Shown: positions 6,910 through 27,326 of the stretch, piece after piece
Position numbering within the stretch: position 1 is the first letter of the stretch
Layout: the number at the start of each line of letters is the position of its first letter
Origin: Methanobacterium sp.
GTDB lineage: Archaea > Methanobacteriota > Methanobacteria > Methanobacteriales > Methanobacteriaceae
Length of the DNA stretch: 27,864 bases
NCBI GenBank assembly: GCA_003166335.1
Contig: PMWA01000031.1
Coordinates: 1-27,864, forward strand
Reading direction: 5' to 3'
Made by a program: the position numbers and the translations under genes
The notes under the pieces: model-generated
Told to the model about the DNA's origin: nothing
Database searches by the model: none
The model's input: only the letters and a program-made list of their open reading frames with translations

Positions 6910-6927
6910 AAATAACTATTGTTAATT
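6910..6927. promoter_or_regulatory. Palindromic sulfur-gene operator, copy 1
   Basis: AAATAACTATTGTTAATT, core TAAC-TATT-GTTA at 6913-6924. Confidence 0.65.
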
Positions 6928-7047
6928 AATATCTACCAGTGACTGAACTTAATAAAAATATTTTAAAAATAAATTATTTTCAATTTTCAGTTGAAGTTAA
7001 TAAAACTTCTTTTAAATGAAAATATTTAAGAATTAGGAGATAAATAA

Positions 7048-8175
7048 TTGAAATTCGATACAAAATCCATACATGAAGGCAGGAAACCGGATCCCCTTAC
7101 AGGAGCAATTTCCACACCCATATATCAAACTTCTACATTCGTATTCGAAGATTATGATAAACCAGGTGAACATGATTACTCCAGAACTAGCAACCCCACT
7201 AGAAGTGCACTGGGAGAAGCTATAGCTGGTTTAGAAGGTGGACACCAAGGATTTGCATTTTCAAGCGGCATGGCTGCTGTAACCACTGCGATACATCTTT
7301 TAAAAGCAGGAGATCATATTATATCGTGTGATGATCTTTATGGTGGTTCCCACAGACTTTTTTCGGAGATAATGACTAAATTCGGATTAGAATTCACTTT
7401 TATGAGGTTGGATGATGAAGAAAAAATTCAAGAAGCAATAAAACCCAATACTAAAATGATCTGGATAGAAACACCATCCAATCCATTATTAAACATAACA
7501 GATCTGGAAATGGTTTCCAGGATTGCTAAGGATAATGAAATACTGACTGCTGCAGATAATACTTTCTCAAGTCCATACTTCTTAAGACCTTTAGAATATA
7601 ATATTGATCTAGTAATACATTCCACAACCAAATATTTGAATGGACACTCAGATGTTATTGGAGGTGCAGTAGTTACGTCTAGTGAGGAGCTTTCAGAGGA
7701 AATTCAATTTCTTCTTAATGGAATGGGAACTAATGCATCACCATTAGACTCTTGGCTAGTCTTAAGAGGTATTAAAACTCTTCCTCTAAGGATGAAGAAA
7801 CATGCTAAAAATGCCATGACCATAGCCCAGTATTTAAGTGATCATCCAAGGGTTAAAGAAGTCTTCTATCCGGGATTAACATCTCATAAGGGACATGAAA
7901 TTGCTAAAAAACAGATGGATGGTTTTGGTGGAGTGGTGTCATTCAAAATAGATACAAATGTAGTTGAATTCCTCAGAGGGTTGGATATATTCGCTCTGGC
8001 TGAATCATTGGGAGGTGCGGATTCTTTGGTGGAACATGCAGCTACAATGAGTCATGCTTCTATGAATGAGGAGGTTAGGAATAAAGCAGGTATCACTGAT
8101 GATCTTATCCGATTATCAGTAGGTTTAGAGGATGTAAATGATCTTATTGAAGATTTAGATAAAGGATTCAAATGA
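7048..8175 (+). CDS. PLP-dependent Cys/Met metabolism enzyme (cystathionine gamma-synthase/gamma- or beta-lyase family)
   Basis: YSRTSNPT, FSSGMAA, ETPSNP, DNTF, HSTTKYLNGHSDV (PLP Lys), AESLGG and IRLSVGLE. TTG start after AGGAG. The exact reaction cannot be assigned by eye. Confidence 0.9.
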   Translation: MKFDTKSIHEGRKPDPLTGAISTPIYQTSTFVFEDYDKPGEHDYSRTSNPTRSALGEAIAGLEGGHQGFAFSSGMAAVTTAIHLLKAGDHIISCDDLYGGSHRLFSEIMTKFGLEFTFMRLDDEEKIQEAIKPNTKMIWIETPSNPLLNITDLEMVSRIAKDNEILTAADNTFSSPYFLRPLEYNIDLVIHSTTKYLNGHSDVIGGAVVTSSEELSEEIQFLLNGMGTNASPLDSWLVLRGIKTLPLRMKKHAKNAMTIAQYLSDHPRVKEVFYPGLTSHKGHEIAKKQMDGFGGVVSFKIDTNVVEFLRGLDIFALAESLGGADSLVEHAATMSHASMNEEVRNKAGITDDLIRLSVGLEDVNDLIEDLDKGFK

Positions 8176-8196
8176 TATATAAATAGAAGGATTATT

Positions 8197-9363
8197 TTGA
8201 TGAGTGAATTAACCAAATTAAAGATTGAACTACTCTGTAAAGGAATAAGAATAGATTCTAAAGAACCATATTACAGAGAAGTAGTGCCTGAGACATATGC
8301 TGAAGGAGGTAAATCTAGAGCTGGAGTAGCTGGTAGTGGCAAATCATTTCTTTTAGGTTGTGAAGAACCTTGCAATGTCGGAGTTTTACAGCCATTTCTC
8401 AAGGAATCACCTTACGCATTTAAAATAATAGATAACCAAGGTTGGATTCTAAAGAATGGTGAAAAAACTATTAAAGCCACATTAAGAGAACCAAAATGGC
8501 ACTCAACAGATCTTTTGAATGAAATCCAGTTACATGGAATAAATTCAATAGCCACTGCAATTTCTAATTCATGTATTTATAAAAAGCAAGGAGTTGGCTG
8601 TAAGTTCTGTATAATTGATGTTGGTCGAGAAGTAGTTTTTCATGACCCATATAAGATTGCAAGATCAATAGAAACAATCGAAAAAAATCCGGATCTCAGG
8701 TTATGTTTTGATATTGAAGATAAATATAATCCAAATCTTGATGAAGAAGAACTTTTAAGACGAAAAAGATACATAGAACCCAAAGATATTAATATAAATG
8801 CTGGAGCCCTTAAAAATGCAGTGGAAATTTATGGAAACACTATTTCACAGATAAAACGTGTTAGTAAACTTCCTATTTTCATAGAAATTGGTCCTATGAA
8901 TAAAGATAAAATTGAAACTCTTTATTCTGCTGGTAAAGATGCATTAAGTTTTAATTTAGAAGTTTATGATAAAAATGCAAGAAAAAATGTAATTCCAGGT
9001 AAAGCCAAGATTAATACTCCTGATGTATACTTCGACGCTATGAAAAATGCTTCTGATATAATTGGAGAAAATCAGGTAAGCTCTTGGATATTAATTGGAC
9101 TTGAGCCTCCTGAAAAAACCATAGAAGGGATCAAGAAAATAGCAGAAGCAGGTGCGATACCTCTGCCAAAACCGTTCAGACCGTTATACGGTGCAGATTA
9201 TGAAAAAAGAAAACCTCCTACAATAAAGGATGCGATTTTAATTTATACCGAATGGTTAGACACAATCAAAGAGTATGGTTTGAATCCTTTTAAAGCTAAA
9301 GCAGGTTGTGTACGATGTAACGCATGTTTTCCCATACGAGAATTATTGAAATATGGTATCTAG
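8197..9363 (+). CDS. Radical SAM protein with CX8CX2C motif, resembling the MSMEG_0568/biotin-synthase-like group
   Basis: C126-x8-C135-xx-C138 (CIYKKQGVGCKFC), SFNLE, ILIGLE, and C-terminal AGCVRCNAC. Start is TTG 8197 or ATG 8200. Confidence 0.8.
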   Translation: MMSELTKLKIELLCKGIRIDSKEPYYREVVPETYAEGGKSRAGVAGSGKSFLLGCEEPCNVGVLQPFLKESPYAFKIIDNQGWILKNGEKTIKATLREPKWHSTDLLNEIQLHGINSIATAISNSCIYKKQGVGCKFCIIDVGREVVFHDPYKIARSIETIEKNPDLRLCFDIEDKYNPNLDEEELLRRKRYIEPKDININAGALKNAVEIYGNTISQIKRVSKLPIFIEIGPMNKDKIETLYSAGKDALSFNLEVYDKNARKNVIPGKAKINTPDVYFDAMKNASDIIGENQVSSWILIGLEPPEKTIEGIKKIAEAGAIPLPKPFRPLYGADYEKRKPPTIKDAILIYTEWLDTIKEYGLNPFKAKAGCVRCNACFPIRELLKYGI

Positions 9364-9562
9364 TAAATATTTTAAAAATTTGAATAATAATGGTTTGGAA
9401 ATCTCTTTTAAGAGCAGATGCAGTTAAAATTGTTTTTTTCTATAAGAAATGAATATTTGCGTTATTTATTAGTTGGGGTTCATGTAATACCATGAGTTTT
9501 TAAATTTTGAATCTAAATTGGGTTAAAAAAATAATTAATGACAAATATATAAGTAAAAATTA

Positions 9563-9580
9563 ATATAACAATTGTTAATA
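9563..9580. promoter_or_regulatory. Palindromic sulfur-gene operator, copy 2 (upstream of thiI-thi4-MOSC)
   Basis: ATATAACAATTGTTAATA with perfect core TAACAATTGTTA at 9566-9577. TATA-like ATATATAA at 9545-9552. Confidence 0.7.
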
Positions 9581-9788
9581 TTTATTTTCATTTGATTACT
9601 TTAATCTATGAAACTAAAAATAACTAATTAAATGGGAAATAATGTTTGAAGAAGATATCTAATAATTAAAGAGTATAAATGTATATAAAAATGATTTAAA
9701 AATTTAGAACATAATTAAAAGTTTAAATTAACTATCACTTAACTTATTGGAAATTTAGAATGCAAACTCTATTGGAAGGAGATAAAAA

Positions 9789-10982
9789 ATGAGTGAAATA
9801 GTGCCTGACAGGCCTATAATAGTAAGATATGGAGAAATAGGAGTTAAAAGCCCCAAAGTTAGACGTAGATTTGAAAGAAGATTAATATCCAACATTAAAG
9901 TACTCATAGATTGTGAAATAGAATTAACACAGGGCAGGATATTCCTATACCCTAATGATTATGAACAGGCTTTAAAATCATTAGAAAAAATTTTCGGTGT
10001 AGTTTCATTCAGTCCCACCCTATCCACTAAAACAGATCATGATTCCATAAAAAATACTCTAACAAGTTATGTTAAAGAATTAGTAGAACAGAATCTATTT
10101 TTACCAGATAACACTTTCGCTATTAGATGTCGTAGAGTAGGGGAACATGAATTCACTAGCCAGGAAATGGCTGCTTACTGTGGTGCAGTAGTGGTGGAAG
10201 AAACTAATGCACCAGTTAATCTCTCCAACCCCGACTTCCAGATTTACGTGGAAGTCCGGGATGATAAAACATACTTCTTCCATAAAAAGATTCCAGGGTT
10301 AGGTGGCCTACCTATTGGAACTCAAGGAAGAGTAATATCTTTAGTTTCAGGTGGTATAGACTCACCAGTAGCAACTTTTCAAATGATGAAGAGAGGCTGC
10401 GATGTAACTATATTACACTTTAATAATGATCCATATACCAAATGCTCAGGTGGATGTAAGATAATAAAAATTGTTGAAAAACTTAAAGAGTATTCATCAG
10501 GCTCTAAATTAAATTTTTACACTGTTAAATACGGAGATTTCCTGGGAAAATGTTTGGAAGAGGCACCCTCCAGAATGACCTGTGTACTTTGTAAAAGTGG
10601 AATGTATCAGATCGCTGAGAAATTAGCAAGAGAAGAAAAAGCATTGGCCATAGTAGATGGCAGTAGTTTAGGTCAGGTAGCATCTCAAACTTTACCAAAC
10701 ATTCTAGCCACTCGTCACTCCACTAAATTACCCGTTCTAAGCCCATTGATTGGATTGGATAAGGTGGAGATCCAGAAAATTGCTGAGAAAATTGGAACCT
10801 TTGAAATATCTATACTGCCGGAGAGCGACTGCTCCGCTGCTCCGAAACATCCAGAAACTAATGCAGTTCTTGAAAATGTACTTCAGGTTCAAGAGGATAT
10901 TGAGATGAGCCAAGAACTAGAGAATATTTTATCCACACTGGAGGAAATCTCCTTAAAAAATTATTTAAAAGAGGCTGATTGA
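9789..10982 (+). CDS. thiI: tRNA 4-thiouridine synthase ThiI, methanogen Fe-S type without rhodanese domain
   Basis: VRYGEIGVKS, THUMP region, PP-loop SGGIDSPVA, C265xxC268 plus C348, and LGQVASQT. Confidence 0.93.
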   Translation: MSEIVPDRPIIVRYGEIGVKSPKVRRRFERRLISNIKVLIDCEIELTQGRIFLYPNDYEQALKSLEKIFGVVSFSPTLSTKTDHDSIKNTLTSYVKELVEQNLFLPDNTFAIRCRRVGEHEFTSQEMAAYCGAVVVEETNAPVNLSNPDFQIYVEVRDDKTYFFHKKIPGLGGLPIGTQGRVISLVSGGIDSPVATFQMMKRGCDVTILHFNNDPYTKCSGGCKIIKIVEKLKEYSSGSKLNFYTVKYGDFLGKCLEEAPSRMTCVLCKSGMYQIAEKLAREEKALAIVDGSSLGQVASQTLPNILATRHSTKLPVLSPLIGLDKVEIQKIAEKIGTFEISILPESDCSAAPKHPETNAVLENVLQVQEDIEMSQELENILSTLEEISLKNYLKEAD

Positions 10983-11085
10983 ATATTTCGATTCAATAAA
11001 TGAAATATTATATATTCATTAAATCTCTTAATATAATTATAGATTAATTTACTGAATTGACTAAAAAAAGAGGAGAGGATAAAGA

Positions 11086-11913
11086 ATGGAAATATTTTCC
11101 AAAGTATCTGAAAAAGATGTAACAAAAGCCATAGTTTCTGAATTTGCTGATGAATTCCTAGATTATATAGAAAGTGACGTGATAATAGTAGGAGCAGGTC
11201 CAAGCGGTCTTTTCGCAGCTAAAAGACTAGCAGAAAAAGGTGTAAAAACATTATTAATTGAAAGTAACAACTATTTAGGCGGGGGTTTCTGGATAGGTGG
11301 ATATCTAATGAATAAGTTAACCGTGAGGGAACCTGGACAGAAAATATTAGATGAAATCGGTGCCCCATACAAAAAATTTAAAGAAGGGCTCTACGTTGCT
11401 GACGGACCACATGCATGCTCAAAACTCATAGCTAGTGCCTGTGATGCCGGAGTGAAAATTATAAACATGACTAAGTTTGACGATGTAGTAATGAGAGAAG
11501 ATAAAGTAGGAGGAATAGTTATGAACTGGACACCAGTATCTGCACTACCAAGAGCCATTACCTGTGTCGATCCAGTAGCTATTGAATCCAAACTAGTGAT
11601 AGATGCAACAGGCCATGATGCAGTAGTTGTAAAATCACTGGAAAAAAGAGGACTTGTAAATACAGCAGGTTTCCAAGGCATGTGGGTTGAAAAAGCAGAG
11701 GATGCCGTAGTTGAAAATACTCAAGAAGTTTATCCAGGAGTCATAGTGACGGGAATGGCCGTAGCCACCACATACGGAAATCCTAGAATGGGCCCTACCT
11801 TCGGCGGAATGCTTCTATCAGGAGAAAAAGCTGCAGAAATAGTTTTGAATAAATTAAAATCTGACATAAGCATTAAAAAATCAGAAGCAGCAAAAATTAA
11901 CGGTTCAAAATAA
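11086..11913 (+). CDS. thi4: Thiazole synthase Thi4 (Cys-containing type)
   Basis: [28 protein letters not shown] and [14 protein letters not shown]. Confidence 0.93.
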
Positions 11914-11938
11914 AAAAAATGGAGTCAATATTCTTTCC

Positions 11939-12388
11939 ATGAATCCATCTAAAGTAATAGCTGTATGCATCAGCCAAGAAAAACACACCAAGAAGAAAAA
12001 CATAGGAAAAGGTGTTTTAAGGGAAAACTATGGGATAATAGGAGATGCCCACAGTGATAGTAGTACACATCGACAAATAAGTCTTTTAGCGATAGAGAGC
12101 ATTGAAAAAATGCGTGAACTTTCTTTAAACGTGCATCCTGGAGATTTTGCTGAAAACATAACCACAGAGGGCATTGATCTCGTATCCCTCCCTCTGGATA
12201 CTAAAATATTGATAGGTGAAACAATACTGCAGGTGACTCAAATTGGTAAGGAATGCCATAATCCCTGTGCAATCGGACAACAGGTGGGTGATTGCATAAT
12301 GCCTCGTGAGGGTATATTTGCCAGAGTTATAAATGGTGGAAAAATTAAAATTGGAGATGAAATACGGTTATTAAAGATAGAAATCTGA
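11939..12388 (+). CDS. Stand-alone MOSC-domain protein
   Basis: GIIGDAH, RQISLL, GDFAENITT and QIGKECH...CIMPREGIFARV. Confidence 0.88.
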   Translation: MNPSKVIAVCISQEKHTKKKNIGKGVLRENYGIIGDAHSDSSTHRQISLLAIESIEKMRELSLNVHPGDFAENITTEGIDLVSLPLDTKILIGETILQVTQIGKECHNPCAIGQQVGDCIMPREGIFARVINGGKIKIGDEIRLLKIEI

Positions 12389-12613
12389 AAATATCATTTT
12401 ATTAATGGTTTATACCTAAATTTGAATTATTCATCTTTTGTCTTTATCAATATTTTTAAAACCTAAAATATTTTTTTTTATTTTAAAGTTAAAACCAATT
12501 AAATTTTGTTAAAAATAAATTCGATTAAAAAAAAAAATAGAACTAAATTAGAAAAAATTTGGAGCATAAAAAAATAGAATGAGATAAGAGTTCATTCACG
12601 GAGATAGATTAAA

Positions 12614-13495
12614 ATGTTACATGGAACTGAAGTTTTAAAGAAAGGATTTGCAAAGATGACTAAAGGCGGAGTAATAATGGACGTCGTAAATGCTGAACAA
12701 GCTGTAATCGCTGAAGAATCAGGTGCAGTATCAGTGATGGCTCTTGAAAAAGTTCCCGCAGATATAAGGGCAGCTGGTGGAGTTGCTCGAATGGCTGATC
12801 CCGCCAAAGTAACGGAAATAATAGAAGCAGTATCCATACCGGTCATGGCTAAAGTAAGAATAGGCCATTTTGTGGAGGCTCAAGTTTTAGAGACCTTGGG
12901 AGTGGATATGATCGACGAAAGTGAGGTTTTAACTCCAGCCGATGAAAAATATCATATTGATAAAAAAAGATTCACCATCCCTTTTGTATGCGGTGCCCGG
13001 AATCTAGGGGAAGCTTTACGTAGAATGGATGAAGGTGCAGCTATGATCAGGACCAAAGGAGAAGCTGGAACTGGTAACATAGTTGAAGCAGTTAGACATA
13101 TGAGAATGATAATGGGCGGCATAAGAGAACTCCGCAATAAGGATGAAGAAGAATTATGGGGTGTGGCCAGGGAAATAGAAGCTACACTTGAATTAGTAAG
13201 AGAAACAGCTAAACTTGGAAAACTGCCAGTAGTGAACTTCGCTGCTGGTGGTGTGGCTACCCCGGCAGATGCTGCTCTTATGATGCAGTTAGGAGCAGAT
13301 GGAGTGTTCGTTGGAAGTGGAATATTCAAATCAGAATATCCGGAATTAGTAGCTAAAGCCATAGTAGAAGCCACACATCATTACAACGATGCAGAAATAA
13401 TTGCAGAAGTCAGCCGCGATTTAGGGAAGGCCATGCCCGGACTTGAAATGAGTGAAATACCTGAAAATGAAAAACTACAAACCAGAGGTTGGTAG
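12614..13495 (+). CDS. pdxS: Pyridoxal 5'-phosphate synthase subunit PdxS
   Basis: [44 protein letters not shown] and C-terminal RGW. Confidence 0.96.
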
Positions 13496-13526
13496 TAGAT
13501 AAAAAAAATTAGAATAAGTTTAAAAT

Positions 13527-13553
13527 GGGTTTTTATTAACCCCAATTTTTTTT
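13527..13553. terminator. Putative terminator between convergent pdxS and aldo/keto reductase
   Basis: GGGTT-N6-AACCC hairpin followed by a T-run. An A-run at 13501-13508 provides a T-run on the minus strand. Confidence 0.45.
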
Positions 13554-13588
13554 ATTTATTTCATTTTATACTTTTTTAAATTAATTAT

Positions 13589-14743: not shown

Positions 14744-14962
14744 TATATACTTCTCCTGTTTTATTTTGTAGAAATTTTAATGAACTAAACTTATAAATAT
14801 ATGGTATTATGATTTAATTTCAATAGAATTTGTTGAGAATAACTATTAAAAAAAACTAATATTTAGATTAGTATATTAAATTATTCCAATATATCTTAAT
14901 ATCGTGTTATTACATCCATAATCTTCATTAAATCTGATGAAATAATTTTTTTGGTGAAACTT

Positions 14963-15704: not shown

Positions 15705-16082
15705 TTACTCTTTCTCTGCAATTTTCTTCTTATAATCGTCTATAGCAGCTTTCAGAGCATCTGCAGCTAAATTAGAGCAATGCATCTTAACTGGAGGCAA
15801 TCCTTCTAATTCATCCGCAACATCATTTCTGCTGATTTTCAATGCTTCTTCAAGGGTTTTACCCATAGCCATCTCCGTTACCATACTACTAGTTGCTATT
15901 GCTGCTCCGCAACCAAAAGTTTTAAATTTAATGTCTTCAATGATATTATCCTTAACTTTTATATAGATAGTCATAAGATCTCCGCAGACAGGGTTTCCAA
16001 CGGTTCCAACACCATCTGCATCTTCTATTTCACCCACATTCCGGGGATTTGAAAAATGTTCCATTACTTTTTCGCTGTACAT
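15705..16082 (-). CDS. iscU: Fe-S cluster scaffold IscU/NifU-N
   Basis: MYSEKVMEHFSNPRNVG, GNPVCGD, FGCGAAIA and PPVKMHCS. Start corrected to ATG 16082, just after the iscS stop. Confidence 0.95.
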   Translation of the reverse strand: MYSEKVMEHFSNPRNVGEIEDADGVGTVGNPVCGDLMTIYIKVKDNIIEDIKFKTFGCGAAIATSSMVTEMAMGKTLEEALKISRNDVADELEGLPPVKMHCSNLAADALKAAIDDYKKKIAEKE

Positions 16083-16087
16083 GTTTA

Positions 16088-17251
16088 TCAAACCTTTGCC
16101 TGACACCATAATGGAGACATTTTCCTTAAAGTGTCAACAGCATTTTTTATTGATTCTATTACATAATCTGTATCTTCAACTTTATTTTCTTTTCCCAAAG
16201 TTAATCGTAGTGATCCATGTGCCTGTACTTCCTCTAGTCCCAGAGCCATTAAAACATGAGATGCTTCTAATTTCTTAGATGAGCATGCAGAACCAGTTGA
16301 GGAAGCTATATTCTTAGAGTCAAGATGTAAAACTAATGATTCTCCTTCAATACCGGTGAATCTGAAGTTAATGTTATTAGGCAGTCTTTTGGTTGGATGT
16401 CCATTGAGATAAGATTCATCAATCTCAGAAAGCACCCTTCTTATTAACTCATCCCGCATAGTGGTTAAATATTGGGCTTCTTCCTCAAGAGTTTTCTCTG
16501 CTATTTCACATGCTTTTCCTAAACCTACAATACCGGCCACGTTTTCTGTACCCGGTCTAATACCCTTTTCATGTCCACCGCCATGAATTATGGGTTCTAA
16601 TCTAACACCTTTTTTAATATACAAAGCTCCAACACCTTTAGGTCCATAAAGCTTATGAGCGGAGAGGGATAACATATCCACGTTTAGTTCTTCTACATTC
16701 ACTGGTATTTTACCAACGCTTTGCACGGCATCTGTGTGGAAGTAAATTTTATTTTCACGGGCAATTTCACCTAATTCACTAATAGGTTGAATTGTACCAA
16801 TTTCATTGTTAGCATGCATAACAGTAATTAAGATGGTTTTATCAGTAATTGCATCTTCCAGATCGGATGAATTAACAATTCCATCCTTTTCTACTGGTAG
16901 ATAGGTAACTTCAAATCCGTTTTTCTCCAGATATTTACACGTTTCATCAACCGCTGGATGTTCAATGTTACTGGTGATTATGTGGTTTCCTCTTCTTTTA
17001 AATCTGTATGCAATGCCTTTAATTGCTATGTTATCGGATTCAGTACCTCCGCTAGTGAATATAATTTCATCAGTGTTTGCACCTATGATGGATGCTACTT
17101 TTTCTCTGCTGGATTCCATAGCTCTTCTGGCATCTCTACCTAGAGAATACAGCGTAGAGGCGTTTCCATAGGATTTCACGAAGTAGGGTTCCATAGCATT
17201 TAGTACTTCCCTGTCTACGGGTGATGTTGCCGAATGATCCATATAAATCAT
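16088..17251 (-). CDS. iscS: Cysteine desulfurase IscS/NifS, group I, with catalytic motifs intact
   Basis: SGGTESDN, IEH98, DAVQ177, SAHK200LYGPKG, RPGTEN and STGSAC323SS. Adjacent to iscU. Confidence 0.95.
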   Translation of the reverse strand: MIYMDHSATSPVDREVLNAMEPYFVKSYGNASTLYSLGRDARRAMESSREKVASIIGANTDEIIFTSGGTESDNIAIKGIAYRFKRRGNHIITSNIEHPAVDETCKYLEKNGFEVTYLPVEKDGIVNSSDLEDAITDKTILITVMHANNEIGTIQPISELGEIARENKIYFHTDAVQSVGKIPVNVEELNVDMLSLSAHKLYGPKGVGALYIKKGVRLEPIIHGGGHEKGIRPGTENVAGIVGLGKACEIAEKTLEEEAQYLTTMRDELIRRVLSEIDESYLNGHPTKRLPNNINFRFTGIEGESLVLHLDSKNIASSTGSACSSKKLEASHVLMALGLEEVQAHGSLRLTLGKENKVEDTDYVIESIKNAVDTLRKMSPLWCQAKV

Positions 17252-17408: not shown

Positions 17409-18881
17409 TTATTTGCTCCCAGCAATTAAGGTGCTTATATGATCAGTAGTGATGATACCAATAACTCTGCCCGTATCATCCACTACGGGAAGGGATGATA
17501 TATTATATTTCCTCATTTTTTGGGCAGAAGACTCTATAGAGTCATCTGGAAGCGCCATGATAACATCCTTGGTCATTATATCTTCTAATTTATCATATTT
17601 AAGAGCCACAGCTTTTGATATGTCCCATGCAGTAACGATACCTATAAGTTTATCTTCCATATTAACTACAGGAATATGGGTAATTTTATCTCTTATCATG
17701 GATTTAGCTGCTTCTTCAATGCTGGTGTTTTTACTAATCTTAGCTACCATATGACTCATCACATCTCTTACTAGGATATCTGACAAGAAATTTTCGATAA
17801 CGTAATTAAGTTGTCCTCCTTCAATTAGAAAAGCATCATGACCATAACTGGATTTCAACTCATAATAAATAACATCTACCTCATTAGCAGTTAAAGCCAT
17901 TAAAATTTCTTTTGATTGTGAAGGGGGATAAAGCCAATCAGAGTCGATTGATATAACTAAAATTTTAGATTTAACATTCTTTAAACCATCTGCTAATGAG
18001 CCATCCACTGTTAAATCAAAATAATCAATGGCTTTAGTTATGTAAAGATATGTGTTAGCATCGAATCTTTTAGTGAAGGAGTTACCTTGATAATGAAGAT
18101 AACTCTCCACTTGAAAATCAGTGGAAAATTCGAAACCATATTCATCCTTATCCTGGAGTCTTCGACCGAATTTCTGATACATGGATTCATTGCTGAGATA
18201 AGTGATATGAGCAATCATACGGGCTAGGGCCAGACCATTATCTGGAAATTGAAGAGAATAATATTCACCATGATTCCAATTTGGATCAGATATAATAGCT
18301 CTTCTACCCACCTCATTAAAGGCTATCTGTTGTGGAGAGGAGTAGGCTGCTGTAGCTATAGGTATAGCCATTCTTACCATGTCTGGATAGGATATGCACC
18401 ATTGAAGAATTTGCATACCACCCATAGATCCTCCTATAACCGCAAATAATTGCTTAATGCCCAAATAGTCGATTAATTTTTTCTGAGCATTTATCATATC
18501 TTTAATAGTTATAATTGGAAAATCCAAGCCATAAGGTTTCCCAGTTTTAGGATTTAGGGATGAAGGACCGGTAGATCCTTTACAACCTCCGATAACATTA
18601 GAACATATGATAAAGTATTTATCAGTGTCCAGGCATCTACCAGGACCAATTATGATATCCCACCAACCAGGTTTTGAATCACCTTCATGCCATCCAGCTG
18701 CATGTGCATCGCCTGAAAGGGCGTGGCAGACCATTATAGCGTTACTTTTCTCCTTATTCAATTTACCATAAGTTTCATACGCTATGGTAATGTTTTCCAA
18801 CCTTTCTCCTCCCTCTAAAACCAGATCATCGGAGGGTTTATAGTACTGCGTTGCTATAATTCCTACAGATTCCTTTCCCAT
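17409..18881 (-). CDS. metX: Homoserine O-acyltransferase MetX fused to a C-terminal CBS pair
   Basis: HALSGD, GGSMGG nucleophile elbow, SDWLY and GHDAF. Two CBS repeats in the last ~120 aa. ATG 18881 preferred over TTG 18893. Confidence 0.92.
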
Positions 18882-19003
18882 CTTACATCCCAAGATTACC
18901 GTTAGTTATAACTAAAATTCTATTATTCATATATTTTTTTATCATCTCCCGCTTAATAAAAACCTTTTGAAAACATTTCACTTAGTAGATGAATCTTTTT
19001 ACT

Positions 19004-20320
19004 TTACACGTTTATTTTGGAAAGTGATTGATCAATATCTGCGATAATATCTTCCACATTTTCTAGTCCAATGGACAATCGGATAAAGTCCTGAGTTACT
19101 CCGGTGGTTTCCTGCTCTTCTGGAGTTAATTGCTGATGTGTAGTGGATGCAGGATGTATAACTAAACTTTTAGCATCTCCAATATTAGCCAAGTGAGAGA
19201 GAAGCTCCACATTTTCAATGAATTGTTTTCCAGCTTCTAATCCGCCTTTAATACCAAATCCTATAAGAGCACCATAACCACCTTTCAAGTATTTAGAAGC
19301 TACTTCATGGGATGAGTCATCTTCTAATCCTGGATAGTTAATCCAATTTACTTTAGGGTGTTCCTTCAAGAATTTTGCAACTTCAAAAGCATTTTCTGAG
19401 TGTTTCTTCACCCTTATATCCAGGGTTTCCAATCCTTGCAGGAATAAGAATCCGTTGAAAGGACTTAAAGCTGCTCCTATATCACGTAAAAGTCTTACTC
19501 TTGCCCTGATGGTGAAGGCTATGTTTCCAAGTCCCGGGAAATCACCAAAGGTTTCCCAGTATTTCAGACCATGGTAACTTGGATCCGGTTCAGTGTATTG
19601 TGGGAATTTACCATTGCCCCAATTAAATTTACCTGAATCAACTATTACTCCACCAATTGAGGTTCCATGCCCTCCTATAAATTTTGTGGCTGAATTTGCT
19701 AGTATGTCTGCTCCAAGTTCCAGAGGCTTTACTAAACCAACTCCTGAGGTGTTGTCAACCACAAATGGTATATCATTTTCGTGAGCAATTTCTGCAATAC
19801 CCTCATAATCAGGCACATCTAACTTTGGATTACCTATTGATTCGGCAAAAATTGCTTTTGTTTTATCTGTGACTGCATTTTCAATCTCTTTCAGATTAGT
19901 TGATTCAACAAAGTTAACTTTTCTACCTAGTTCTGGAAATGTGTAGTTAAAAAGCTGATATGTACCACCATAGAGGTTGTTTGCTGCTAATATTTCATCA
20001 CCAGGTAAACTAAGGTTTAGAAGCGAGTAAGTAGTGGCTGCCTGTCCAGATGCTACGGCTAATGCCGAAGTACCGCCTTCTATAGCTGCTATTCTTCTTT
20101 CGAAGATGTCGTTGGTGGGGTTCATTATACGTGTGTATATGTTACCAAATTCTTTCAATGCGAAAAGGTTTGCTGCGTGGTCTGTGTCTTTAAATACGTA
20201 GGATGATGTTTGATAAATGGGTACTGCCCTAGATCCAGTTGCTGGATCAGGTTCTTCCTGCCCGACATGTAATCCTAAAGTAGCTAATCCATATTCTCTC
20301 TTTTTTTCTTCTTCGGTCAT
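19004..20320 (-). CDS. metY: O-acetylhomoserine aminocarboxypropyltransferase/sulfhydrylase MetY
   Basis: [36 protein letters not shown] and [21 protein letters not shown]. Upstream of metX. Confidence 0.94.
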
Positions 20321-20526
20321 TTTTATATCTCCTTTTATTGTTATATTTTCCTTTTGTGGGTTTAATTCCTTATTTTGGATTTTAACAGTTAAAAAGATAA
20401 TTTATCTTTTATTAAAGTATATAAATCTTATTTCTTATGTACGATTAATTTTAAATTTACTGCAGATTTTTTTCATTGTAGAGTGAATTATTAGGCAATA
20501 TTATATGAAAATAACCACATTAGGAA

Positions 20527-20546
20527 AATATAACAATTGTTATATT
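20527..20546. promoter_or_regulatory. Palindromic sulfur-gene operator, copy 3 (upstream of metY-metX)
   Basis: Perfect 20-bp palindrome AATATAACAATTGTTATATT. Confidence 0.8.
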
Positions 20547-20553
20547 ATTATAT

Positions 20554-20569
20554 TATTTAAATTTTACCC
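20554..20569 (-). promoter_or_regulatory. Putative BRE-TATA promoter for metY (distal)
   Basis: Minus strand reads GGGTAAAA-TTTAAATA, ending 7 nt before operator copy 3. Confidence 0.5.
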
Positions 20570-20705
20570 TATACATTTTTTATGTTAAAAATCCTCAAAC
20601 TATTGCATAGCTTCAAAAACTAATGGAAAATGAGCGAAAATAATCACTTGCATACTCATTCAAGTTCCCAAAAAAAACTAAATCTTAATTAATTATTTAA
20701 TTAAT

Positions 20706-21866
20706 TTAATTCAGTGCACTTATTCTTCTTAAGTTCACTATTATGTCTACTACAGCATCCACCACTCTGTCAACATCTTTCATAGTATTAAATCGACTAA
20801 AAGTAAAACGCACGGATCCATGAGCTCTTTCATGTTCTCCCCCGATCCCCAGTATAACATGACTAGCTTCTAATGTACGGCTAAAACAGGCTGAGCCGGT
20901 GTTCACCGCAAAACCACGCATATCCAGATGAAGAGTGATGGATTCACCTTCTACTCGTTCAAAGGTTATATTAGCATTTTGAGGTATTCGCTTTGTAGGA
21001 TGTCCATTTAAAACAGTTTGAGGTATTTCAGATAGAATTCGCTCCATCAAACGGTCACGCATTTTCTGAAGATATTTGTTTTCATCATCAGTCACCAGTT
21101 GAACTGCCTTCGCAAATCCAACAGCACCCGAAACATTTTCCAACCCTGCACGACGATCAGATTCCTGATATCCACCGTCCATCCATTTCCGTATTTGAGT
21201 ACCTTTGCGAATGAAAAGACCGCCGATGCCATTAGGGCCATGTATGGTATGAGCTGAGAATGAAATCAGATCTACAGGTACTTTCTGCACATCCAGAGGT
21301 ATCCTAGTAAAAGTATGAGTTGCATCAATATGGAAGAGCACATTTTTCTTTTGACAAACTCTTCCAATGGCTTCAATGTCTTGAATGGTACCAATTTCTT
21401 GATTAGCATGTTGCACGGAAACTAAAATAGTTTCATCAGTAATGGTATCTTTGAGTAGGGCGGGATCCACCAGGCCATCACCGTCAACATCTAGATATGT
21501 GACTTTAAAACCTTGCTTCTCTAGTGCTTTAGCTGTGTTAAGAACAGAGAAGTCTTCGATTTTAGATACAATTATGTGATTCCCTTTTCTGATTTTAGCC
21601 ATAGCCACCCCTTTCAAGGCCATATTACTGGATTCTGTAAACCCTGAGGTGAAAATAAATTCAGATGCCGAAGCTCCTAAATGATTTGTTATGATTTCTC
21701 TGCTTTTTTCCAGGGCTTCACGAGCTTCTATACCCATGGAATAACCGGATTCAGATGTGGGAATGGCGTAAATATCAAAAAAGTAGGGTTTCATTTCATC
21801 AAAAACGCGCTCATCCAAACGGGTGATAGATGCATTATCTAAATAAGTGTATTCATTATCAAACAT
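20706..21866 (-). CDS. IscS-like paralogue lacking PLP-binding residues but retaining the persulfide Cys
   Basis: Full-length colinear similarity to iscS (16088-17251), but with SAHT207IHGP, IED105, DATH184 and AGLEN. TGSAC327FS is retained. Confidence 0.9.
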   Translation of the reverse strand: MFDNEYTYLDNASITRLDERVFDEMKPYFFDIYAIPTSESGYSMGIEAREALEKSREIITNHLGASASEFIFTSGFTESSNMALKGVAMAKIRKGNHIIVSKIEDFSVLNTAKALEKQGFKVTYLDVDGDGLVDPALLKDTITDETILVSVQHANQEIGTIQDIEAIGRVCQKKNVLFHIDATHTFTRIPLDVQKVPVDLISFSAHTIHGPNGIGGLFIRKGTQIRKWMDGGYQESDRRAGLENVSGAVGFAKAVQLVTDDENKYLQKMRDRLMERILSEIPQTVLNGHPTKRIPQNANITFERVEGESITLHLDMRGFAVNTGSACFSRTLEASHVILGIGGEHERAHGSVRFTFSRFNTMKDVDRVVDAVVDIIVNLRRISALN

Positions 21867-21874
21867 GATTTCAC

Positions 21875-22294
<420 letters not shown>

Positions 22295-22303
22295 TTTTTT
22301 CAC

Positions 22304-22531
22304 CTATTTTCGGATTTTAATTTTCCATACTCCTTCTTTCTCTTGGATGTCTATTACCTCTAAACCCATATCTTCAGCTGCCATCGGTATCTCTTTTTTG
22401 GAAGCAGGATGATTACCGGTAATTTCCACAATATCTCCTTTTGACGCTTTATTTAATGCTTTCCGGAATTCAACTAACGGTCCTGGACATGTTTGACCAG
22501 TTACATCAACTTTTATTTCTTTTTCAGCCAT
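22304..22531 (-). CDS. tusA: TusA/SirA-family sulfurtransferase
   Basis: 75 aa with DVTGQTCPGP (CPxP) motif. GGTGA RBS. Confidence 0.9.
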   Translation of the reverse strand: MAEKEIKVDVTGQTCPGPLVEFRKALNKASKGDIVEITGNHPASKKEIPMAAEDMGLEVIDIQEKEGVWKIKIRK

Positions 22532-22697
22532 TTAAATCACCCAATTCCTTTTTTTATTTAATAATTTTTAAAAAAGATTAGAATAAATTAGATAAATTCA
22601 AAAATAACATATAATATTTATATTACCTAATGAAGATAAATTTTTTTATATATTGAATTATTAAGTTAAGACTAATTTTTTTATTGCAGAATATACT

Positions 22698-22717
22698 AAT
22701 ATAACAATTGTTATATT
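22698..22717. promoter_or_regulatory. Palindromic sulfur-gene operator, copy 4 (upstream of tusA-dsrE-iscS-like)
   Basis: Perfect 20-bp palindrome AATATAACAATTGTTATATT, identical to copy 3. Confidence 0.8.
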
Positions 22718-22719
22718 TC

Positions 22720-22734
22720 CTTATAAAGATTTGC
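22720..22734 (-). promoter_or_regulatory. Putative BRE-TATA promoter for the tusA operon
   Basis: Minus strand reads GCAAATC-TTTATAAG, abutting operator copy 4. Confidence 0.55.
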
Positions 22735-23100
22735 ATCTCTTATAAAAACTTATAAAAAATATTTCACATTACAAATCAAAATATATTAAAAATGAGATTA
22801 ACTTATAAATATCCGTATATATGGTTGATTTCCCATTAAGACATACCAATCTGAATTGGCGTTAAATATAGCCACGTAAATATAACCACTAAAACTATTA
22901 AACATATTTACTCAAATAATAATTAATCTTAGTGTTCTATAAAAAATATTATTTTTAATTTAAAATTAACACATAGAACTTAAATCTTTAATCCTCATAT
23001 TCTTAAAAAAATAAGAATGAAAAAATTTTATAGATATTATTCTACATATTTTATCAGGATTCTTATATTCATTAATAATCTCCTTAATGAAATTAGATTA

Positions 23101-25542
23101 TTAAGTTATTCCTAGCTTTACCCGTTTTGCAGGAGGTACATATCCTTTTAAAAGTAATGAAAGGCTTAAAACTGATACAGAACTCAATGCCATCGCCAAA
23201 CCAGCAAATTCCGGTCTAAATATAATGCCAAAAAATGGATACAATACTCCAGCTGCAACAGGAATGAGCACCACATTATAAGCGAAAGCCCAGAATAAAT
23301 TCTGCTTTATCCTAGACATTACTTTTCTACTTAACTGCACACCAGCAAGAGCATCCATTATGTCATCTTTTATAAGAACAATTTCACCACTTTCTATAGC
23401 AACATCAGTACCGCTTCCAATAGCAAGACCTACATCCGACTGTGCAAGAGCTGGTGCATCATTAATACCATCACCCACAAATGCCACAACTTCTCCAGTG
23501 TCCTGAAGCCTTTTAACTTCCTCTGATTTCTCTTGGGGCAGTACTTCCGCAATCACATCATGAATTCCCAATTCTTTGGCAATAGCATTAGCTGTTTTTT
23601 CATTATCACCAGTGATCATAACCACTTTAAGATTCATCTTTTTAAGACCCTCAATAGCATCCTTAGCAGTTTCTTTTAATGTATCTGCTATAGCAATGAT
23701 TCCAGATAATTCATTATTAACTCCAATCAAAATTGCTGTTTTTCTTTTATTTTCAAATTTATATAATTGATCTTCAACATTGTCTGATATTATAATATTT
23801 CTATCTCTAAACAGTGCTCTATTTCCAATAATTACTTCGTTTCCATCAACTATTGCTTTTACTCCTTTTCCACCAAAAGTATCAAAATTCTGGCTTTCTA
23901 ATATTTCAATATTTTCTGATTGGGTTTTTTTTACTACTGCTTTTGCAAGTGGATGTTGTGAATTTTTCTCTACACTCGCCGCTATTTTTAATAAACTATT
24001 ACCATCTATTCCAATGGCCTCTATATCAGTAACTTCAGGTTTACCTTTAGTAAGAGTTCCTGTTTTATCAAATACCATTGTAGTAAGCCTTTCAGATATT
24101 TCCAAGGCTTCACCATTCTTAACCAGAATACCAAACTCTGCTCCCCGCCCAATACCAACAGTAACCGCTGTAGGTGTTGCTAAACCCAAAGCACAGGGAC
24201 ATGCCACAACTAAAATTGATATAAAAACTGTAAGAGCGAAAAGTAAAGTGCTTCCCGAGATTAAATACCAGAAAATGAAAGCCACAATAGCAATGGTTAA
24301 AATAGTGGGAATGAAATAACTCACAGCCCTATCAGCTAACCTTTGAACTGGTGGTTTTGAACCTTGAGCATCTTCAACTAATTTAATAATCTGTGAAAGC
24401 ATAGTGTCCTTACCTATTTTCATAGCTTCAAATCTTATCACTCCATTTTGATTGATAGTTCCACCAACAACCGATTTTCCAGCATCTTTAAGGACAGGAA
24501 TCGGTTCTCCCGTGACGGTGGATTCATCCACATAACTTTCACCACTTACAACATCCCCATCTAAAGGAATCTTTTCACCAGGCTTAACCACAACTATATC
24601 GTCAATTTGAACATCTTCAATGGGTATTTCCATCTCTTCATTATTACGTAATACAGTAGCTGTTTTAGCCTGCAATTCCATTAAACTTTTTATTGCTGTT
24701 GATGTCCTTCCCTTAGCTCTTGTCTCTAAATATCTTCCTAACGTCAGAAAAGCAGCAAGTATAAGTGCAGTTCCATAAAATAAAAATTGTGGAGTCAATA
24801 CAATACTAAAAGTACCTAAAACACTTGCCACGTACGCAACACCTATACCCATAGAATACATAACATCCATATCTAGATTTTTATGTCTAAGAGAACGGAA
24901 ACCAGCACTGAATATAGGGTAACTTACATAGGCGAATGGAATAATGGATACTATAAATATGAAAAGAGAAATAGGAATCGGAAGATGGAAGCTAACATAG
25001 GATAAGGCTTCAAGTGGAATTCCAAAACCGAAACCCACAATCATTCGATTTCTTTTAGTTTTAAGGTCTTTAACTCTCAGTTCTTCTTCAAGATCTTCTG
25101 TTACTTCACCTTCTACTCCTAAATATTGATAGCCCAGATCTTCAATGGCGTCTTTCATCTCTATTATGCTGGTCATCTGTTGATTATAAGTGATATAGGC
25201 TTTCTCGGCAGTGAGGTTAACTGTTACTTTGCTAATTCCATCCAGTTTTCCCAGCGCATCTTCTATGGCTTTTACACACATGACACAGCTCATTCCTCCT
25301 ATTTTTAGGATTACTTTCTCATTCAATACATTGAAACCAGCGCCTTCTACGGCTTTTTCCAGTTCAGGGAGCTTCAGTTTTTCAGGATCGTATTTTACCG
25401 TTGCTTTTTCCGTTCCAATATTCACATGGGCTTCTTCAACACCTTCAAGATTTTTTAAGTATTTTTCAACGTTTAAGGCACAAGAAGCACAACTCATCCC
25501 TGAAACTTTGATTTCTGCCTTTTTTTTAGATTCTTCCACCAT
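23101..25542 (-). CDS. copA: P1B-1 Cu(I)-exporting ATPase with two N-terminal HMA domains
   Basis: [46 protein letters not shown] and MALSS. Confidence 0.95.
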
Positions 25543-25714
25543 TTATATTCCTTCTTTTTATATGAGGTCAGATTTTAATATTTATTAGATGATTACTATA
25601 ATTTTGATTCTGTATCCATTGCTTTACACAATAAATAATTGATTTTTATGTGAAATCTAATTTGCTGTTTATATATATTAAAACCGAACTAATAATATTT
25701 AAATTAAGTATAGA

Positions 25715-25730
25715 CGAAAACGTTATATAC
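25715..25730 (+). promoter_or_regulatory. BRE-TATA promoter of the HxlR gene
   Basis: CGAAAACG-TTATATAC about 50 nt upstream of the start codon. Confidence 0.6.
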
Positions 25731-25739
25731 TATTCAACT

Positions 25740-25764
25740 GTATACTGACCATCATAAAGTATAC
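25740..25764. promoter_or_regulatory. Inverted repeat, probable HxlR autoregulatory operator
   Basis: GTATACT-N11-AGTATAC straddling the expected transcription start. Confidence 0.6.
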
Positions 25765-25778
25765 CAGGTTGTGATTAT

Positions 25779-26123
25779 ATGGTTAATAAAATGAAGGAAT
25801 ATTGTTGTCCAGTAGGAGCGGCAATAGATGAAATAGGTGGAAAATGGAAGCCACTTATTTTGTGGGCATTGAAAGATGGTAAATTACGATTTAATGAAAT
25901 TAATAAAGCTATACCAGCTATAACTCAACGTATGCTTACGAAACAGTTACGTGAATTAGAAAAAGATGGTTTAGTTAATAGGAAAGTATATGCTGAGGTA
26001 CCTCCCAAAGTGGAATATAATCTTACCAAAAAAGGTGATTCAGTTATGCCCATTTTAGAATTACTTTGTAATTGGGGAGAAGAATACTGTAAACATAAAA
26101 TTATTTTAAACGAATTACACTAA
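25779..26123 (+). CDS. HxlR (MarR/DUF24) family winged-helix regulator
   Basis: CCPV...[21 protein letters not shown] and [14 protein letters not shown]. Confidence 0.93.
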
Positions 26124-26204
26124 AATTCTTATTTATATAAACTAATTAATAAAAAATATTTATAATTAATAAATTAATATTTTTTATTCATAGTTGGGCT
26201 ATAA

Positions 26205-26732
26205 ATGATTGTTATAAGAAAAGATAAAGATGATATAGGGAAAGACGGAAAAAAGACGTCTTTTTTACCACTACTGTTTACCGTAATAATTTTTTTATTA
26301 TTATTCCTAGTGATTCCTATAGGCTTAGTCTTATTACTTCACTTACCATGGTATTTATTATTTATTTATCCTTTGGGAATTGTTATCGGGGCTATTTTAA
26401 TTATTGTTGGTGTTGTAATTATATATCTTGGTATTAAAGGTCTTAGATTGAGATATTCTCGTGATTCATATGATAAAATAAAGGAAGGATTAGTAACTAC
26501 TGGAATTTATGCTTACACTAGAAATCCTATGTACTTTGGTGCGATAATCATGATTTTGGGATGGTTCCTAGTCTTTCCATTCACTTTCATTTTAATTAGC
26601 ACCTTCCTATTTTTAGTTTTATTTTATATCACGGCAAGATCTGAAGAGAAACAGTTACAGGAAAAATATGGTAGAAAATTTTTGGAATATAAGCGTAAAG
26701 TACCTTTATTCATACCATATCCAAAATTCTGA
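26205..26732 (+). CDS. Isoprenylcysteine carboxyl methyltransferase/PEMT-family membrane protein
   Basis: Hydrophobic helices. LVTTGIYAYTRNPMYFG and EEKQL...Y...VPLFIP. Confidence 0.88.
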   Translation: MIVIRKDKDDIGKDGKKTSFLPLLFTVIIFLLLFLVIPIGLVLLLHLPWYLLFIYPLGIVIGAILIIVGVVIIYLGIKGLRLRYSRDSYDKIKEGLVTTGIYAYTRNPMYFGAIIMILGWFLVFPFTFILISTFLFLVLFYITARSEEKQLQEKYGRKFLEYKRKVPLFIPYPKF

Positions 26733-26820
26733 AAAATAAATCAAAAAATAATGATTAATTGTGTAAATTTAAACGATTTATTCTTAAAAATTGAATTAAT
26801 TTAGAAAAATTTAACCTTAG

Positions 26821-27040
26821 TTAATTAACGGAGCAATCTTAGCTGCCATAGTGGGTTTTGTAAGCATTATAATACTATTAACCAAGTGTACACGAATGGA
26901 TTGCTATCAACATATACAACTTCTGGTTTAATCGAATCACTGTTGATACTCCAAGTTTATAATATTATAGCGGCTTTAGTTGGTGTAGTGATTGGAAACG
27001 TAGCCGGGTAGAATACTTAAAATCTATAAATCTTGATTAG
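26821..27040 (+). pseudogene. 5'-truncated, frameshifted remnant of a small membrane-protein gene
   Basis: LINGAILAAIVGFVSIIILL (26821-26880) continues after a frameshift as QVYTNGLLSTYTTSGLIESLLILQVYNIIAALVGVVIGNVAG (26883-27008). No start codon; in-frame TAG at 26818. Confidence 0.5.
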
Positions 27041-27267
27041 TAACTATGATACGATTAAACATGTAGAATAATCAAATAAGTTGTACTGCTTTGAGTAAGG
27101 TATTATATTTTGGTTATTCATTCAATTAATGCATAATCCAAATATTTTTTTATGAATTTTTCAGAATTTTCTTAAAATTTGGAATAAAATTTGAGGGTCT
27201 GAAAAAATTTTATAAAAGTAATATGAGTAAAATAATGATAATTTTTAACTTATTTTAAATAAATAAT

Positions 27268-27282
27268 CGAAAGATTTATAAA
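27268..27282 (+). promoter_or_regulatory. BRE-TATA promoter of cysK
   Basis: CGAAAGA-TTTATAAA, a canonical methanogen promoter, about 85 nt upstream of the ATG. Confidence 0.7.
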
Positions 27283-27290
27283 TGATTTTG

Positions 27291-27326
27291 ATATAACGAT
27301 TGTTATATATATAACGATAGTTATAT
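27291..27326. promoter_or_regulatory. Tandem palindromic sulfur-gene operators, copies 5 and 6
   Basis: ATATAACGATTGTTATAT (27291-27308) directly followed by ATATAACGATAGTTATAT (27309-27326). Confidence 0.8.

Follow-up and report, generated by a model that had tools for sequence, protein, structure and literature searches.

The stretch analysed here, called the window throughout, comprises 27,864 nucleotides from Methanobacterium sp. (GenBank assembly GCA_003166335.1, contig PMWA01000031.1) and carries, ahead of its genes for sulfur assimilation and sulfur transfer, a recurrent palindrome of the form ATAAC-nATn-GTTAT, which is proposed to be the operator of a small, cysteine-rich helix-turn-helix (HTH) protein encoded behind cysK and cysE. 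According to this reading, to which we give a probability of roughly three in four, the protein would repress the sulfur genes until sulfur runs short. The palindrome had been reported in an original prediction, made from the window alone, as the mark of a sulfur regulon governed by one dimeric repressor. That observation is confirmed and its interpretation is supported; that the protein represses, that it binds as a dimer and that sulfur is the signal is what we infer from sequence comparison.

A pattern scan of the window for TAACnATnGTTA returned six exact matches, at 6913, 9566, 20531, 22702, 27294 and 27312, all of them intergenic as first claimed. With up to one mismatch, nine matches were obtained versus 2.18 +/- 1.57 expected, a count reached by 0 of 100 shuffles. 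Indeed, the same 20-mer, a perfect palindrome, stands at both 20527 and 22698. A TATA-like 8-mer in the orientation of the gene, read by eye, ends 4, 13, 11, 6 and 11 nt ahead of the core at the five promoters, in agreement with the 4-13 nt originally given, and in all five the site lies downstream of the TATA box and ahead of the expected start. A matrix of 22 bp, trained on 41 sites that all come from relatives and none from the window's genome, found no window site beyond the six down to a score of 6; the regions before the eha, AKR/YkgJ, copA and HxlR genes, from which the motif had been said to be absent, are thus free of it at this threshold. The elements are as follows.

6901-6908, plus strand: TATA-like box of operator 1, 4 nt ahead of the core (by eye).
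6910-6927: operator 1, core TAACTATTGTTA at 6913-6924, ahead of the cystathionine lyase/synthase and radical S-adenosylmethionine (SAM) genes; matrix score 12.8.
9545-9552, plus strand: TATA-like box of operator 2, 13 nt ahead of the core (by eye).
9563-9580: operator 2, core at 9566-9577, ahead of thiI-thi4-MOSC; matrix score 17.7.
20527-20546: operator 3, perfect 20-mer palindrome ahead of metY; matrix score 25.0.
20554-20561, minus strand: TATA box of operator 3, TTTAAATA, 11 nt ahead of the core (by eye).
22698-22717: operator 4, perfect 20-mer palindrome ahead of tusA; matrix score 25.0.
22720-22727, minus strand: TATA box of operator 4, TTTATAAG, 6 nt ahead of the core (by eye).
27275-27282, plus strand: TATA box of operator 5, TTTATAAA, 11 nt ahead of the core (by eye).
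27291-27326: tandem operators 5 and 6, cores at 27294 and 27312, 18 bp apart, ahead of cysK-cysE-regulator; scores 23.7 and 22.6.

The window corresponds to positions 1-27864 of contig C107 in a genome of 2.49 Mb and 32% G+C (G000). The exact 12-mer occurs 13 times in this genome, nine of the copies falling within kb 6.9-42.8 of C107, and at a matrix score of at least 12 there are 17 matches, 11 of them inside one 38-kb island of sulfur genes and the remaining six ahead of or within other genes. Intergenic matches number 14, 10 and 7 at scores 12, 15 and 20, compared with means of 2.1, 0.45 and 0 in 20 shuffles. The concentration ahead of sulfur genes that the original prediction expected from such a scan was therefore found. 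Beyond the window, C107 carries five further sites, at 32921, 41223, 42729, 42757 and 44269, the third and fourth of which form a pair described below and the others of which precede the following genes.

C107:32921: site ahead of the GMC oxidoreductase-thiF-hdrCBA series.
C107:41223: site ahead of a PNPOx-like gene.
C107:44269: site ahead of the second cysK.

The operator is conserved well outside this genome. ATAACnATnGTTAT is present in 35/36 genomes of the family, compared with 1/9 and 0/5 in two other families of the order, and the exact 14-mer gives 2,012 matches in 251 Methanobacteriaceae genomes versus 259 for a reversed control. Sites are kept ahead of orthologous genes, the equivalent of operator 3 preceding metY in 9/10 and 50/51 relatives, and the core is conserved while the flanks diverge. 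In 80 loci centred on the regulator, nearly all titled Methanobrevibacter, 273 intergenic TAAC-N4-GTTA were counted in 76 loci, with at most five for any other spacer; a site stands ahead of cysK in 66/72, of metY in 50/51 and of iscS in 1/49. All 24 exact 14-mers of three other near-complete genomes were inspected, and 15 lie ahead of clear sulfur or iron-sulfur (Fe-S) genes, namely cysK, cysE, metY, iscS, thiI, thiF and moaE, two of the 15 (a nifB-like radical SAM gene and a glutamate-cysteine-ligase-like gene) being named by eye only. Three more are plausible (the hcgF cluster, an FMN reductase and one site within an NMT1 gene), and six are unrelated or unclear. Hence the sites are not equally frequent ahead of unrelated genes, and the idea of a sulfur-gene regulon holds for most sites, though not for every one; the predicted regulon has lineage-specific edges. 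The placement of the system in Methanobacteriales proved right in that the sites are found throughout Methanobacteriaceae, and too narrow in that distant archaea have it too.

The repressor had been described as not identified in the window, and the candidate does lie outside it, but it can now be named, since the gene for a 126-aa protein is found behind both cysK-cysE pairs of the genome, the nearer one just beyond the window's end.

C107:29140: regulator copy 1, interrupted by an NN assembly gap, about 1.3 kb beyond the window.
C107:46243-46623: regulator copy 2, intact, behind the second cysK-cysE.

For both copies Pfam gives a weak HTH_3 match (E up to 1e-4) and nothing else, and an NCBIfam scan gave no match. 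The AlphaFold model is all-helical with the HTH at residues 31-49 (pLDDT 82). No match to the sequence was found among solved structures under E 0.7, and none to the model by Foldseek at E 0.001; the best VIA-align Z of 5.2 falls inside the common range, the structural matches being HTH-sized or weak, and a homodimer prediction score of 0.02 is evidence neither way. The profile of the regulator matches 1,814 clusters at 50% identity, and its look-alike clusters are archaeal and unnamed. Recorded orthologues are ABQ86474.1 (Methanobrevibacter), mru_1572 and AIS32185.1 (Methanobacterium formicicum), annotated only as predicted regulators. Residues C5, C89, C92, C102, H105, C115 and C118 are invariant in 18 close homologues, and among 50 diverse members conservation is highest for the Cys3His set C102/H105/C115/C118. 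Members with a site of 3-bp spacer (N3) retain the triad C5/C89/C92 in 35/36 cases and those with a site of 4-bp spacer (N4) in 14/15, versus 15/20 for members without a nearby site; the Cys3His set is retained in 28/36 and 12/15 of the former two groups. Moreover, Trp10 accompanies the 4-bp spacer, being present in 15/15 N4-site members versus 1/36 N3-site members, with 12 of the 15 coming from one family.

That this protein owns the operator is suggested in the first place by their common distribution. The regulator was found in 230 of the 251 family genomes, and two or more sites are present in 220/230 genomes with it versus 5/21 without it; the median number of sites is 8 versus 0, and the reversed control averages about 1 in both groups. 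Two genomes in which the regulator gene is broken (G009 and G033) have one site each. Since the regulator has been lost together with targets, plain co-occurrence is confounded, and only the cysS control and the sites at the regulator's own promoter escape this difficulty. In the former, the promoter of the retained tRNA-Cys-cysS genes was inspected in 53 loci, less two whose upstream region is shorter than 300 nt and one that lacks an anchor: a site is present in 23/33 regulator-positive genomes, 0/16 regulator-less genomes and 0/1 with a broken gene. Within genus g13 the values are 10/12 and 0/9 for regulator-positive and regulator-less genomes, respectively, and two genomes (G071 and G079) show decayed remnants of a site at the expected distance in the cysS promoter. 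A quick cysS tree splits the regulator-less genomes into several separate groups. The first form of this control had given 14/14 versus 0/14 with genomes picked by site count, which made it partly circular; it was later extended to the rest of genus g13, to the window's genus and to the exceptions. In G000 itself tRNA-Cys lies ahead of cysS at C107:31169-31239 (L001:4170-4240), and most relatives carry the operator at the promoter of this tRNA. The use of thi4 as a second retained target was given up as useless, since the copy in the island proved to be a paralogue of its own, of the Cys type.

The strongest line for ownership, free of target co-loss, comes from distant archaea, where the regulator appears to control itself. 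Sixty loci were taken, the best-scoring 30 of 70 and 30 of 42 genomes with a homologue, many of them small and many related. Intergenic TAAC-N3-GTTA occurs 40 times in 37 of these loci and the N4 form six times in five, every other spacer from 0 to 10 being found at most twice; the site-bearing loci span 17 families by our own count. In 35/60 loci an exact site stands 12-58 nt ahead of the regulator's own start, often with no adjoining sulfur gene, and in others the neighbours are iscS-iscU, sufCBDS, cysS, thiI or ttuA-thiS-thiF. TAAC-N3-GTTA is not enriched in G000. Enrichment near a regulator gene, which according to the original prediction would support it, has thus been obtained in the form of a candidate with matching distribution and self-regulating sites. 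Taken together, these comparisons make it very probable that the small HTH protein directly binds the palindrome.

Several observations weigh against the proposal. The gene metY was not found in 16/18 regulator-less or broken genomes, and, kin not being independent, Fisher values overstate the association. Five of the 21 regulator-less genomes carry 4-15 sites; in this group cysE was not found in 4/5 and cysS in 3/5, which suggests assembly gaps, while one genome (G263) stays unexplained. Conversely, no more than one exact site is present in eight genomes whose regulator seems intact, and 10/33 regulator-positive genomes as well as the window's own sub-lineage have no cysS site. Some sites precede unrelated genes, coding for a small GTPase, an OmdA-family protein, a class II amidotransferase and a pyridoxal-kinase-like protein, and in the three other genomes inspected about a third of the sites stand ahead of genes that are of another kind or unclear. 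With regard to the protein, Methanobrevibacter-type members have no Cys102/His105, and a ThiR-type protein, whose effector is presumably thiamine phosphate, keeps all six Cys, so that these may be only structural. With regard to the promoters, a strict TATA box ends 0-15 nt ahead of the first site in 21 of 107 promoters of relatives versus 12 when mirrored, a modest enrichment, and the peak at 16 nt (46 versus 0 mirrored) comes largely from related cysK promoters.

According to the mechanism that we propose, the palindrome just downstream of the TATA box would be a docking site on which the regulator sits as a dimeric repressor while sulfur is plentiful and from which it would be released at sulfur shortage. 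Derepression would then supply the sulfide-fixing, high-affinity CysK-CysE and MetY-MetX, the cysteine-mobilising IscS, C-S lyases, TusA, DsrE and ThiI, and Thi4 of the Cys type. Some species would gain tRNA-Cys/CysS, a nitrogenase-like enzyme and an ABC transporter of the NMT1 type as well. As these targets serve to fix sulfide, to release sulfur from cysteine or to scavenge, derepression at sulfur shortage fits, and the supply of sulfur or of Fe-S is the probable signal. The distribution of the two Thi4 types agrees with it. In the family the Cys type (CVDP) belongs to the sulfur island, and the His type (HVDP), which uses free sulfide as the NCBIfam family name indicates, is the family-wide copy. 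In the four genomes with two thi4 genes in which both copies were checked, the site is at the Cys-type gene and none is at the His-type gene, as expected if derepression occurs when sulfur is scarce; two genomes with His-type thi4 alone have the site at that gene.

How the signal is read is less clear. Tentatively, Cys5/Cys89/Cys92 may hold an Fe-S cluster that acts as the sensor, and Cys102/His105/Cys115/Cys118 may bind zinc in a structural role. A rival to be taken seriously, if at somewhat less than even odds, keeps the operator and the protein and replaces the Fe-S signal by zinc, sulfane-sulfur modification, oxidation or a complex with CysK, in the way that CymR of Bacillus reads cysteine status through a complex with CysK. 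The position of the regulator gene behind cysK-cysE in most family loci, the prominence of the Cys3His set among diverse members and the six Cys retained by the ThiR-type protein speak for such a signal, whereas in distant archaea iscS-iscU, suf, thiI and cysS outnumber cysK as neighbours, and short members in which only the three-Cys triad remains still have sites.

As for the direction of control, the sites would in all likelihood repress by covering the region from the TATA box to the start. In archaea, repressors such as NrpR block polymerase recruitment from a site between TATA and start, and IscR is known for dual regulation depending on its cofactor state. That the present protein is instead an activator, or a dual regulator of the latter kind, is improbable. 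A site abuts the TATA box (gap 0) in 8/107 promoters, and the spacings of tandem sites vary from 14 to 37 bp, as such a role would allow; against it stand the downstream location of the sites at all five window promoters and 11 distant loci with a site just 12-14 nt ahead of the start codon. RbkR was inferred to be an activator from the position of its sites upstream of the promoter elements (PMC5397151).

It is more doubtful still that the operator belongs to some other transcription factor, one that disappeared along with the sulfur island, and that the HTH-Cys gene is a passenger among its targets. The joint loss of regulator, metY and cysE would be explained in this way, as would the five genomes with sites in which no regulator was detected and the eight with at most one site despite an apparently intact gene; but the sites directly ahead of the regulator's own start in many families, and the single site in each of the two genomes with a broken regulator, are hard to reconcile with it, and no other regulator gene is common to the islands compared, namely those of G000, G030 and the Methanobrevibacter loci. 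Finally, the notion that the palindromes are chance AT-rich matches, mobile-element repeats or terminators, to which intergenic DNA of 77% A+T and the count of 25 intergenic TAAC-N4-GTTA with any middle versus 7-18 for other spacers in the whole genome might lend some colour, can be set aside in view of the controls with shuffled sequence and with the reversed pattern, the constant position within promoters, the conserved core amid diverging flanks and the loss of sites together with the regulator.

The genes behind the window's operators, whose original calls were upheld by Pfam and NCBIfam, are listed here.

7048-8175, plus strand: Cys/Met metabolism pyridoxal-phosphate enzyme of the cystathionine gamma-lyase/synthase type, PF01053 (Cys_Met_Meta_PP); best NCBIfam match cystathionine gamma-lyase/homocysteine desulfhydrase, under that family's cut-off.
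8197-9363, plus strand: radical SAM protein (variant_rSAM, MSMEG_0568-related), NF045502 above cut-off.
9789-10982, plus strand: thiI, tRNA uracil 4-sulfurtransferase, TIGR00342 above cut-off.
11086-11913, plus strand: thi4, thiazole synthase of the Cys type (CVDP motif), the sole thi4 found among the called open reading frames (ORFs) of G000.
11939-12388, plus strand: MOSC-domain protein, PF03473.
15705-17251, minus strand: iscS-iscU (NifS/NifU type), without a site of its own.
17409-20320, minus strand: metY (O-acetylhomoserine sulfhydrylase) and metX, TIGR01326 and NF001209 above cut-off.
20706-22531, minus strand: sulfur relay genes tusA, dsrE-like and iscS-like, PF01206, PF13686 (DrsE_2) and PF00266.
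27365-27864, plus strand: 5' part of cysK; the series continues past the window to cysE (C107:28340) and the candidate regulator (C107:29140).

The genes iscS-iscU are possibly transcribed by read-through from metY-metX. The radical SAM protein of 8197-9363, of unknown function, sits in an operator-headed operon, and in another genome (G005) a site lies ahead of a possible radical SAM gene, named by eye and without a Pfam match. Contig C107 carries the cysK-cysE-regulator unit twice (27365-29460 and 44319-46623), and the NN assembly gaps of the first unit, at 27865 and 29397, are not true breaks. Elsewhere in G000, a site of score 22 with a TATA box stands at C123:38703 ahead of a small GTPase-like gene, downstream of amt-glnB; it is kept in a relative (G017), with no evident link to sulfur. 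Two near-matches to TAATAATTGTTA, 20 bp apart at C50:70055 and 70075, lie between a nitrilase-like and an Alba-like gene (by eye) and may be weak sites or another motif.

In one relative, G030, the island has 23 sites across 47 kb and also includes tRNA-Cys-cysS, and behind operator arrays (L078:15393-19460 and L079:99-2967) stand D, K and H genes of nitrogenase-like type and an ABC transporter of the NMT1 type. The putative nitrogenase-like enzyme is possibly an archaeal counterpart of the sulfur-scavenging MAR/ISR enzymes. A further element, in G000, is the minus-strand stretch C107:42050-42770 (L001:15050-15770), in which paired operators at 42757 and 42729, 28 bp apart and following a minus-strand TATA box, head about 670 nt without a long ORF that are conserved in several relatives. 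This stretch contains a ribosome-site-like word followed by ATG TGT AGA TAA (Met-Cys-Arg-stop), and in another genus the minigene reads Met-Cys-Ser-Cys-Arg. The strict minigene pattern occurs in 11/251 genomes, 10 of its 12 matches lying behind paired operators and some about 650-690 nt ahead of hdrA-like or tusA genes. Folding gives z = -4.45 for the G000 copy and from -1.5 to -5.6 for five others; ten copies yielded no consensus structure (0 pairs), and a comparison with Rfam gave no match. One 389-nt contig of an RNA library (run X4) lies wholly inside the stretch, a weak hint of its transcription, such contigs being unable to rank expression or show starts. Runs of RNA libraries labelled as peat metagenome also match a stretch of the window, and for an adjoining stretch pieces of more than 1.4 kb from two peat runs match with zero differing letters, which indicates the presence of the organism and not transcription. 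As a hypothesis, the candidate RNA would be a cysteine-sensing leader or small RNA, for which we take the two-codon Trp minigene ahead of Methanothermobacter trpY to be a precedent.

No description of the operator or of the protein was found in the literature searched, mostly titles and abstract openings, and a mention in work on ThiR is possible; nor was an assigned regulator of cysteine synthesis and Fe-S assembly in archaea or methanogens found there. The question of this control matters above all in methanogens, given their heavy Fe-S demand, and what is offered is a named protein family, a 14-bp operator, recorded orthologues and natural loss lineages. Furthermore, the operator flags sulfur genes hitherto unannotated, among them the radical SAM protein, the GMC oxidoreductase, Hdr paralogues, the nitrogenase-like enzyme and the candidate RNA.

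Among known systems, those with other operators can be set apart first. The SurR motif is GTT-N3-AAC, and the arms of the ModE operator are GTTATATA...TATATAAC at fixed spacing. The former was found near only 1/11 sites, the patterns given in the original prediction for NrpR (GGAA-N6-TTCC) and MsvR (TTCG...CGAA) at 0/11 each, which bears out its claim that the motif differs from all three; for ModE, one pair among the 11 fits loosely, most promoters have a single inverted unit, and tandem units are 14 to 49 bp apart. SurR is like the present regulator in being archaeal, Cys-dependent and sulfur-linked and in using GTT and AAC half-sites, but the half-sites are reversed here (AAC...GTT), and SurR controls hydrogenases and S0 respiration rather than assimilation; SurR is a redox-sensitive activator/repressor of hydrogen and S0 metabolism in Thermococcales (PMC4463584). 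Control of nitrogenase-like genes by sulfur limitation is found in bacteria with SalR, a LysR-type protein needed for the expression of methylthio-alkane reductase in Rhodospirillum rubrum (PMC13474568). The arrangement in G030, where operators precede nifD/K/H-like genes and the NMT1 ABC transporter, is similar, with the difference that SalR is a LysR-type bacterial protein and the G030 enzyme is putative.

A closer relation links the regulator with ThiR, reportedly described by Rodionov and colleagues in 2017 as an archaeal thiamine regulator composed of HTH and ThiN. An HTH-ThiN protein of locus L067, which we take to be of the ThiR type from its domain layout, aligns over its first 118 residues with the whole 126-aa regulator (hhalign 99.3%, 31% identity, 117 columns, all six Cys included). 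The two share the DNA-binding module; the regulator, however, ends at 126 aa without a ThiN match, hence without the sensor of thiamine phosphate, and its predicted regulon is sulfur-wide. In a Thermococcales-like family, TAAC-N3-GTTA is found in 22/24 promoters of His-type thi4 at no more than one mismatch. This fits a recognition code common to the ThiR module and the regulator, even if the motif also scores when read with shifted spacers of 5 or 6, and a stand-alone homologue is likewise present in at least two of the genomes. Two tandem AAC-N3-GTT palindromes are seen in the Thermococcales-like thi4 promoters of L253 and L343-L370, and five of these loci have a Cys-type Thi4 with a related element. 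In its widest and rather unlikely form, the proposal would see in the regulator a pan-archaeal, Rrf2-independent Fe-S/sulfur sensor, that is, a stand-alone Cys-bearing ThiR module that uses TAAC-N3/4-GTTA to repress sulfur acquisition in archaea ranging from small-genome lineages to methanogens of gut and peat, with a regulon to which some Methanobacterium-type lineages add a nitrogenase-like enzyme for scavenging sulfur and a long leader or small RNA with Met-Cys-Arg minigenes through which the ribosome would read the supply of Cys-tRNA.

In function, the nearest parallels are bacterial. CymR of Bacillus subtilis is an Rrf2 repressor of cysteine metabolism that acts with CysK, and the archaeal protein resembles it in that it is probably the master repressor of cysK and further Cys/Met genes and is encoded beside cysteine genes; it differs in not being of the Rrf2 family, in its six conserved Cys and in its place beside iscS or suf genes even in loci without cysK. 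IscR is the Rrf2-family [2Fe-2S] regulator of isc/suf in bacteria. Like it, the archaeal regulator is a small, Cys-bearing and apparently self-regulating DNA-binding protein that adjoins iscS-iscU or suf genes, with a self-site in the 35 distant loci mentioned and iscS-iscU or sufB/sufCBDS adjacent in many, and its members with sites have three conserved Cys as possible cluster ligands. It departs from IscR in having no Rrf2 match, in its different operator and in its wider range of targets, which takes in Cys/Met synthesis, sulfur carriers and tRNA-Cys/CysS. By analogy, therefore, this archaeal protein may work like IscR or CymR, though from outside the Rrf2 family to which both of them belong.

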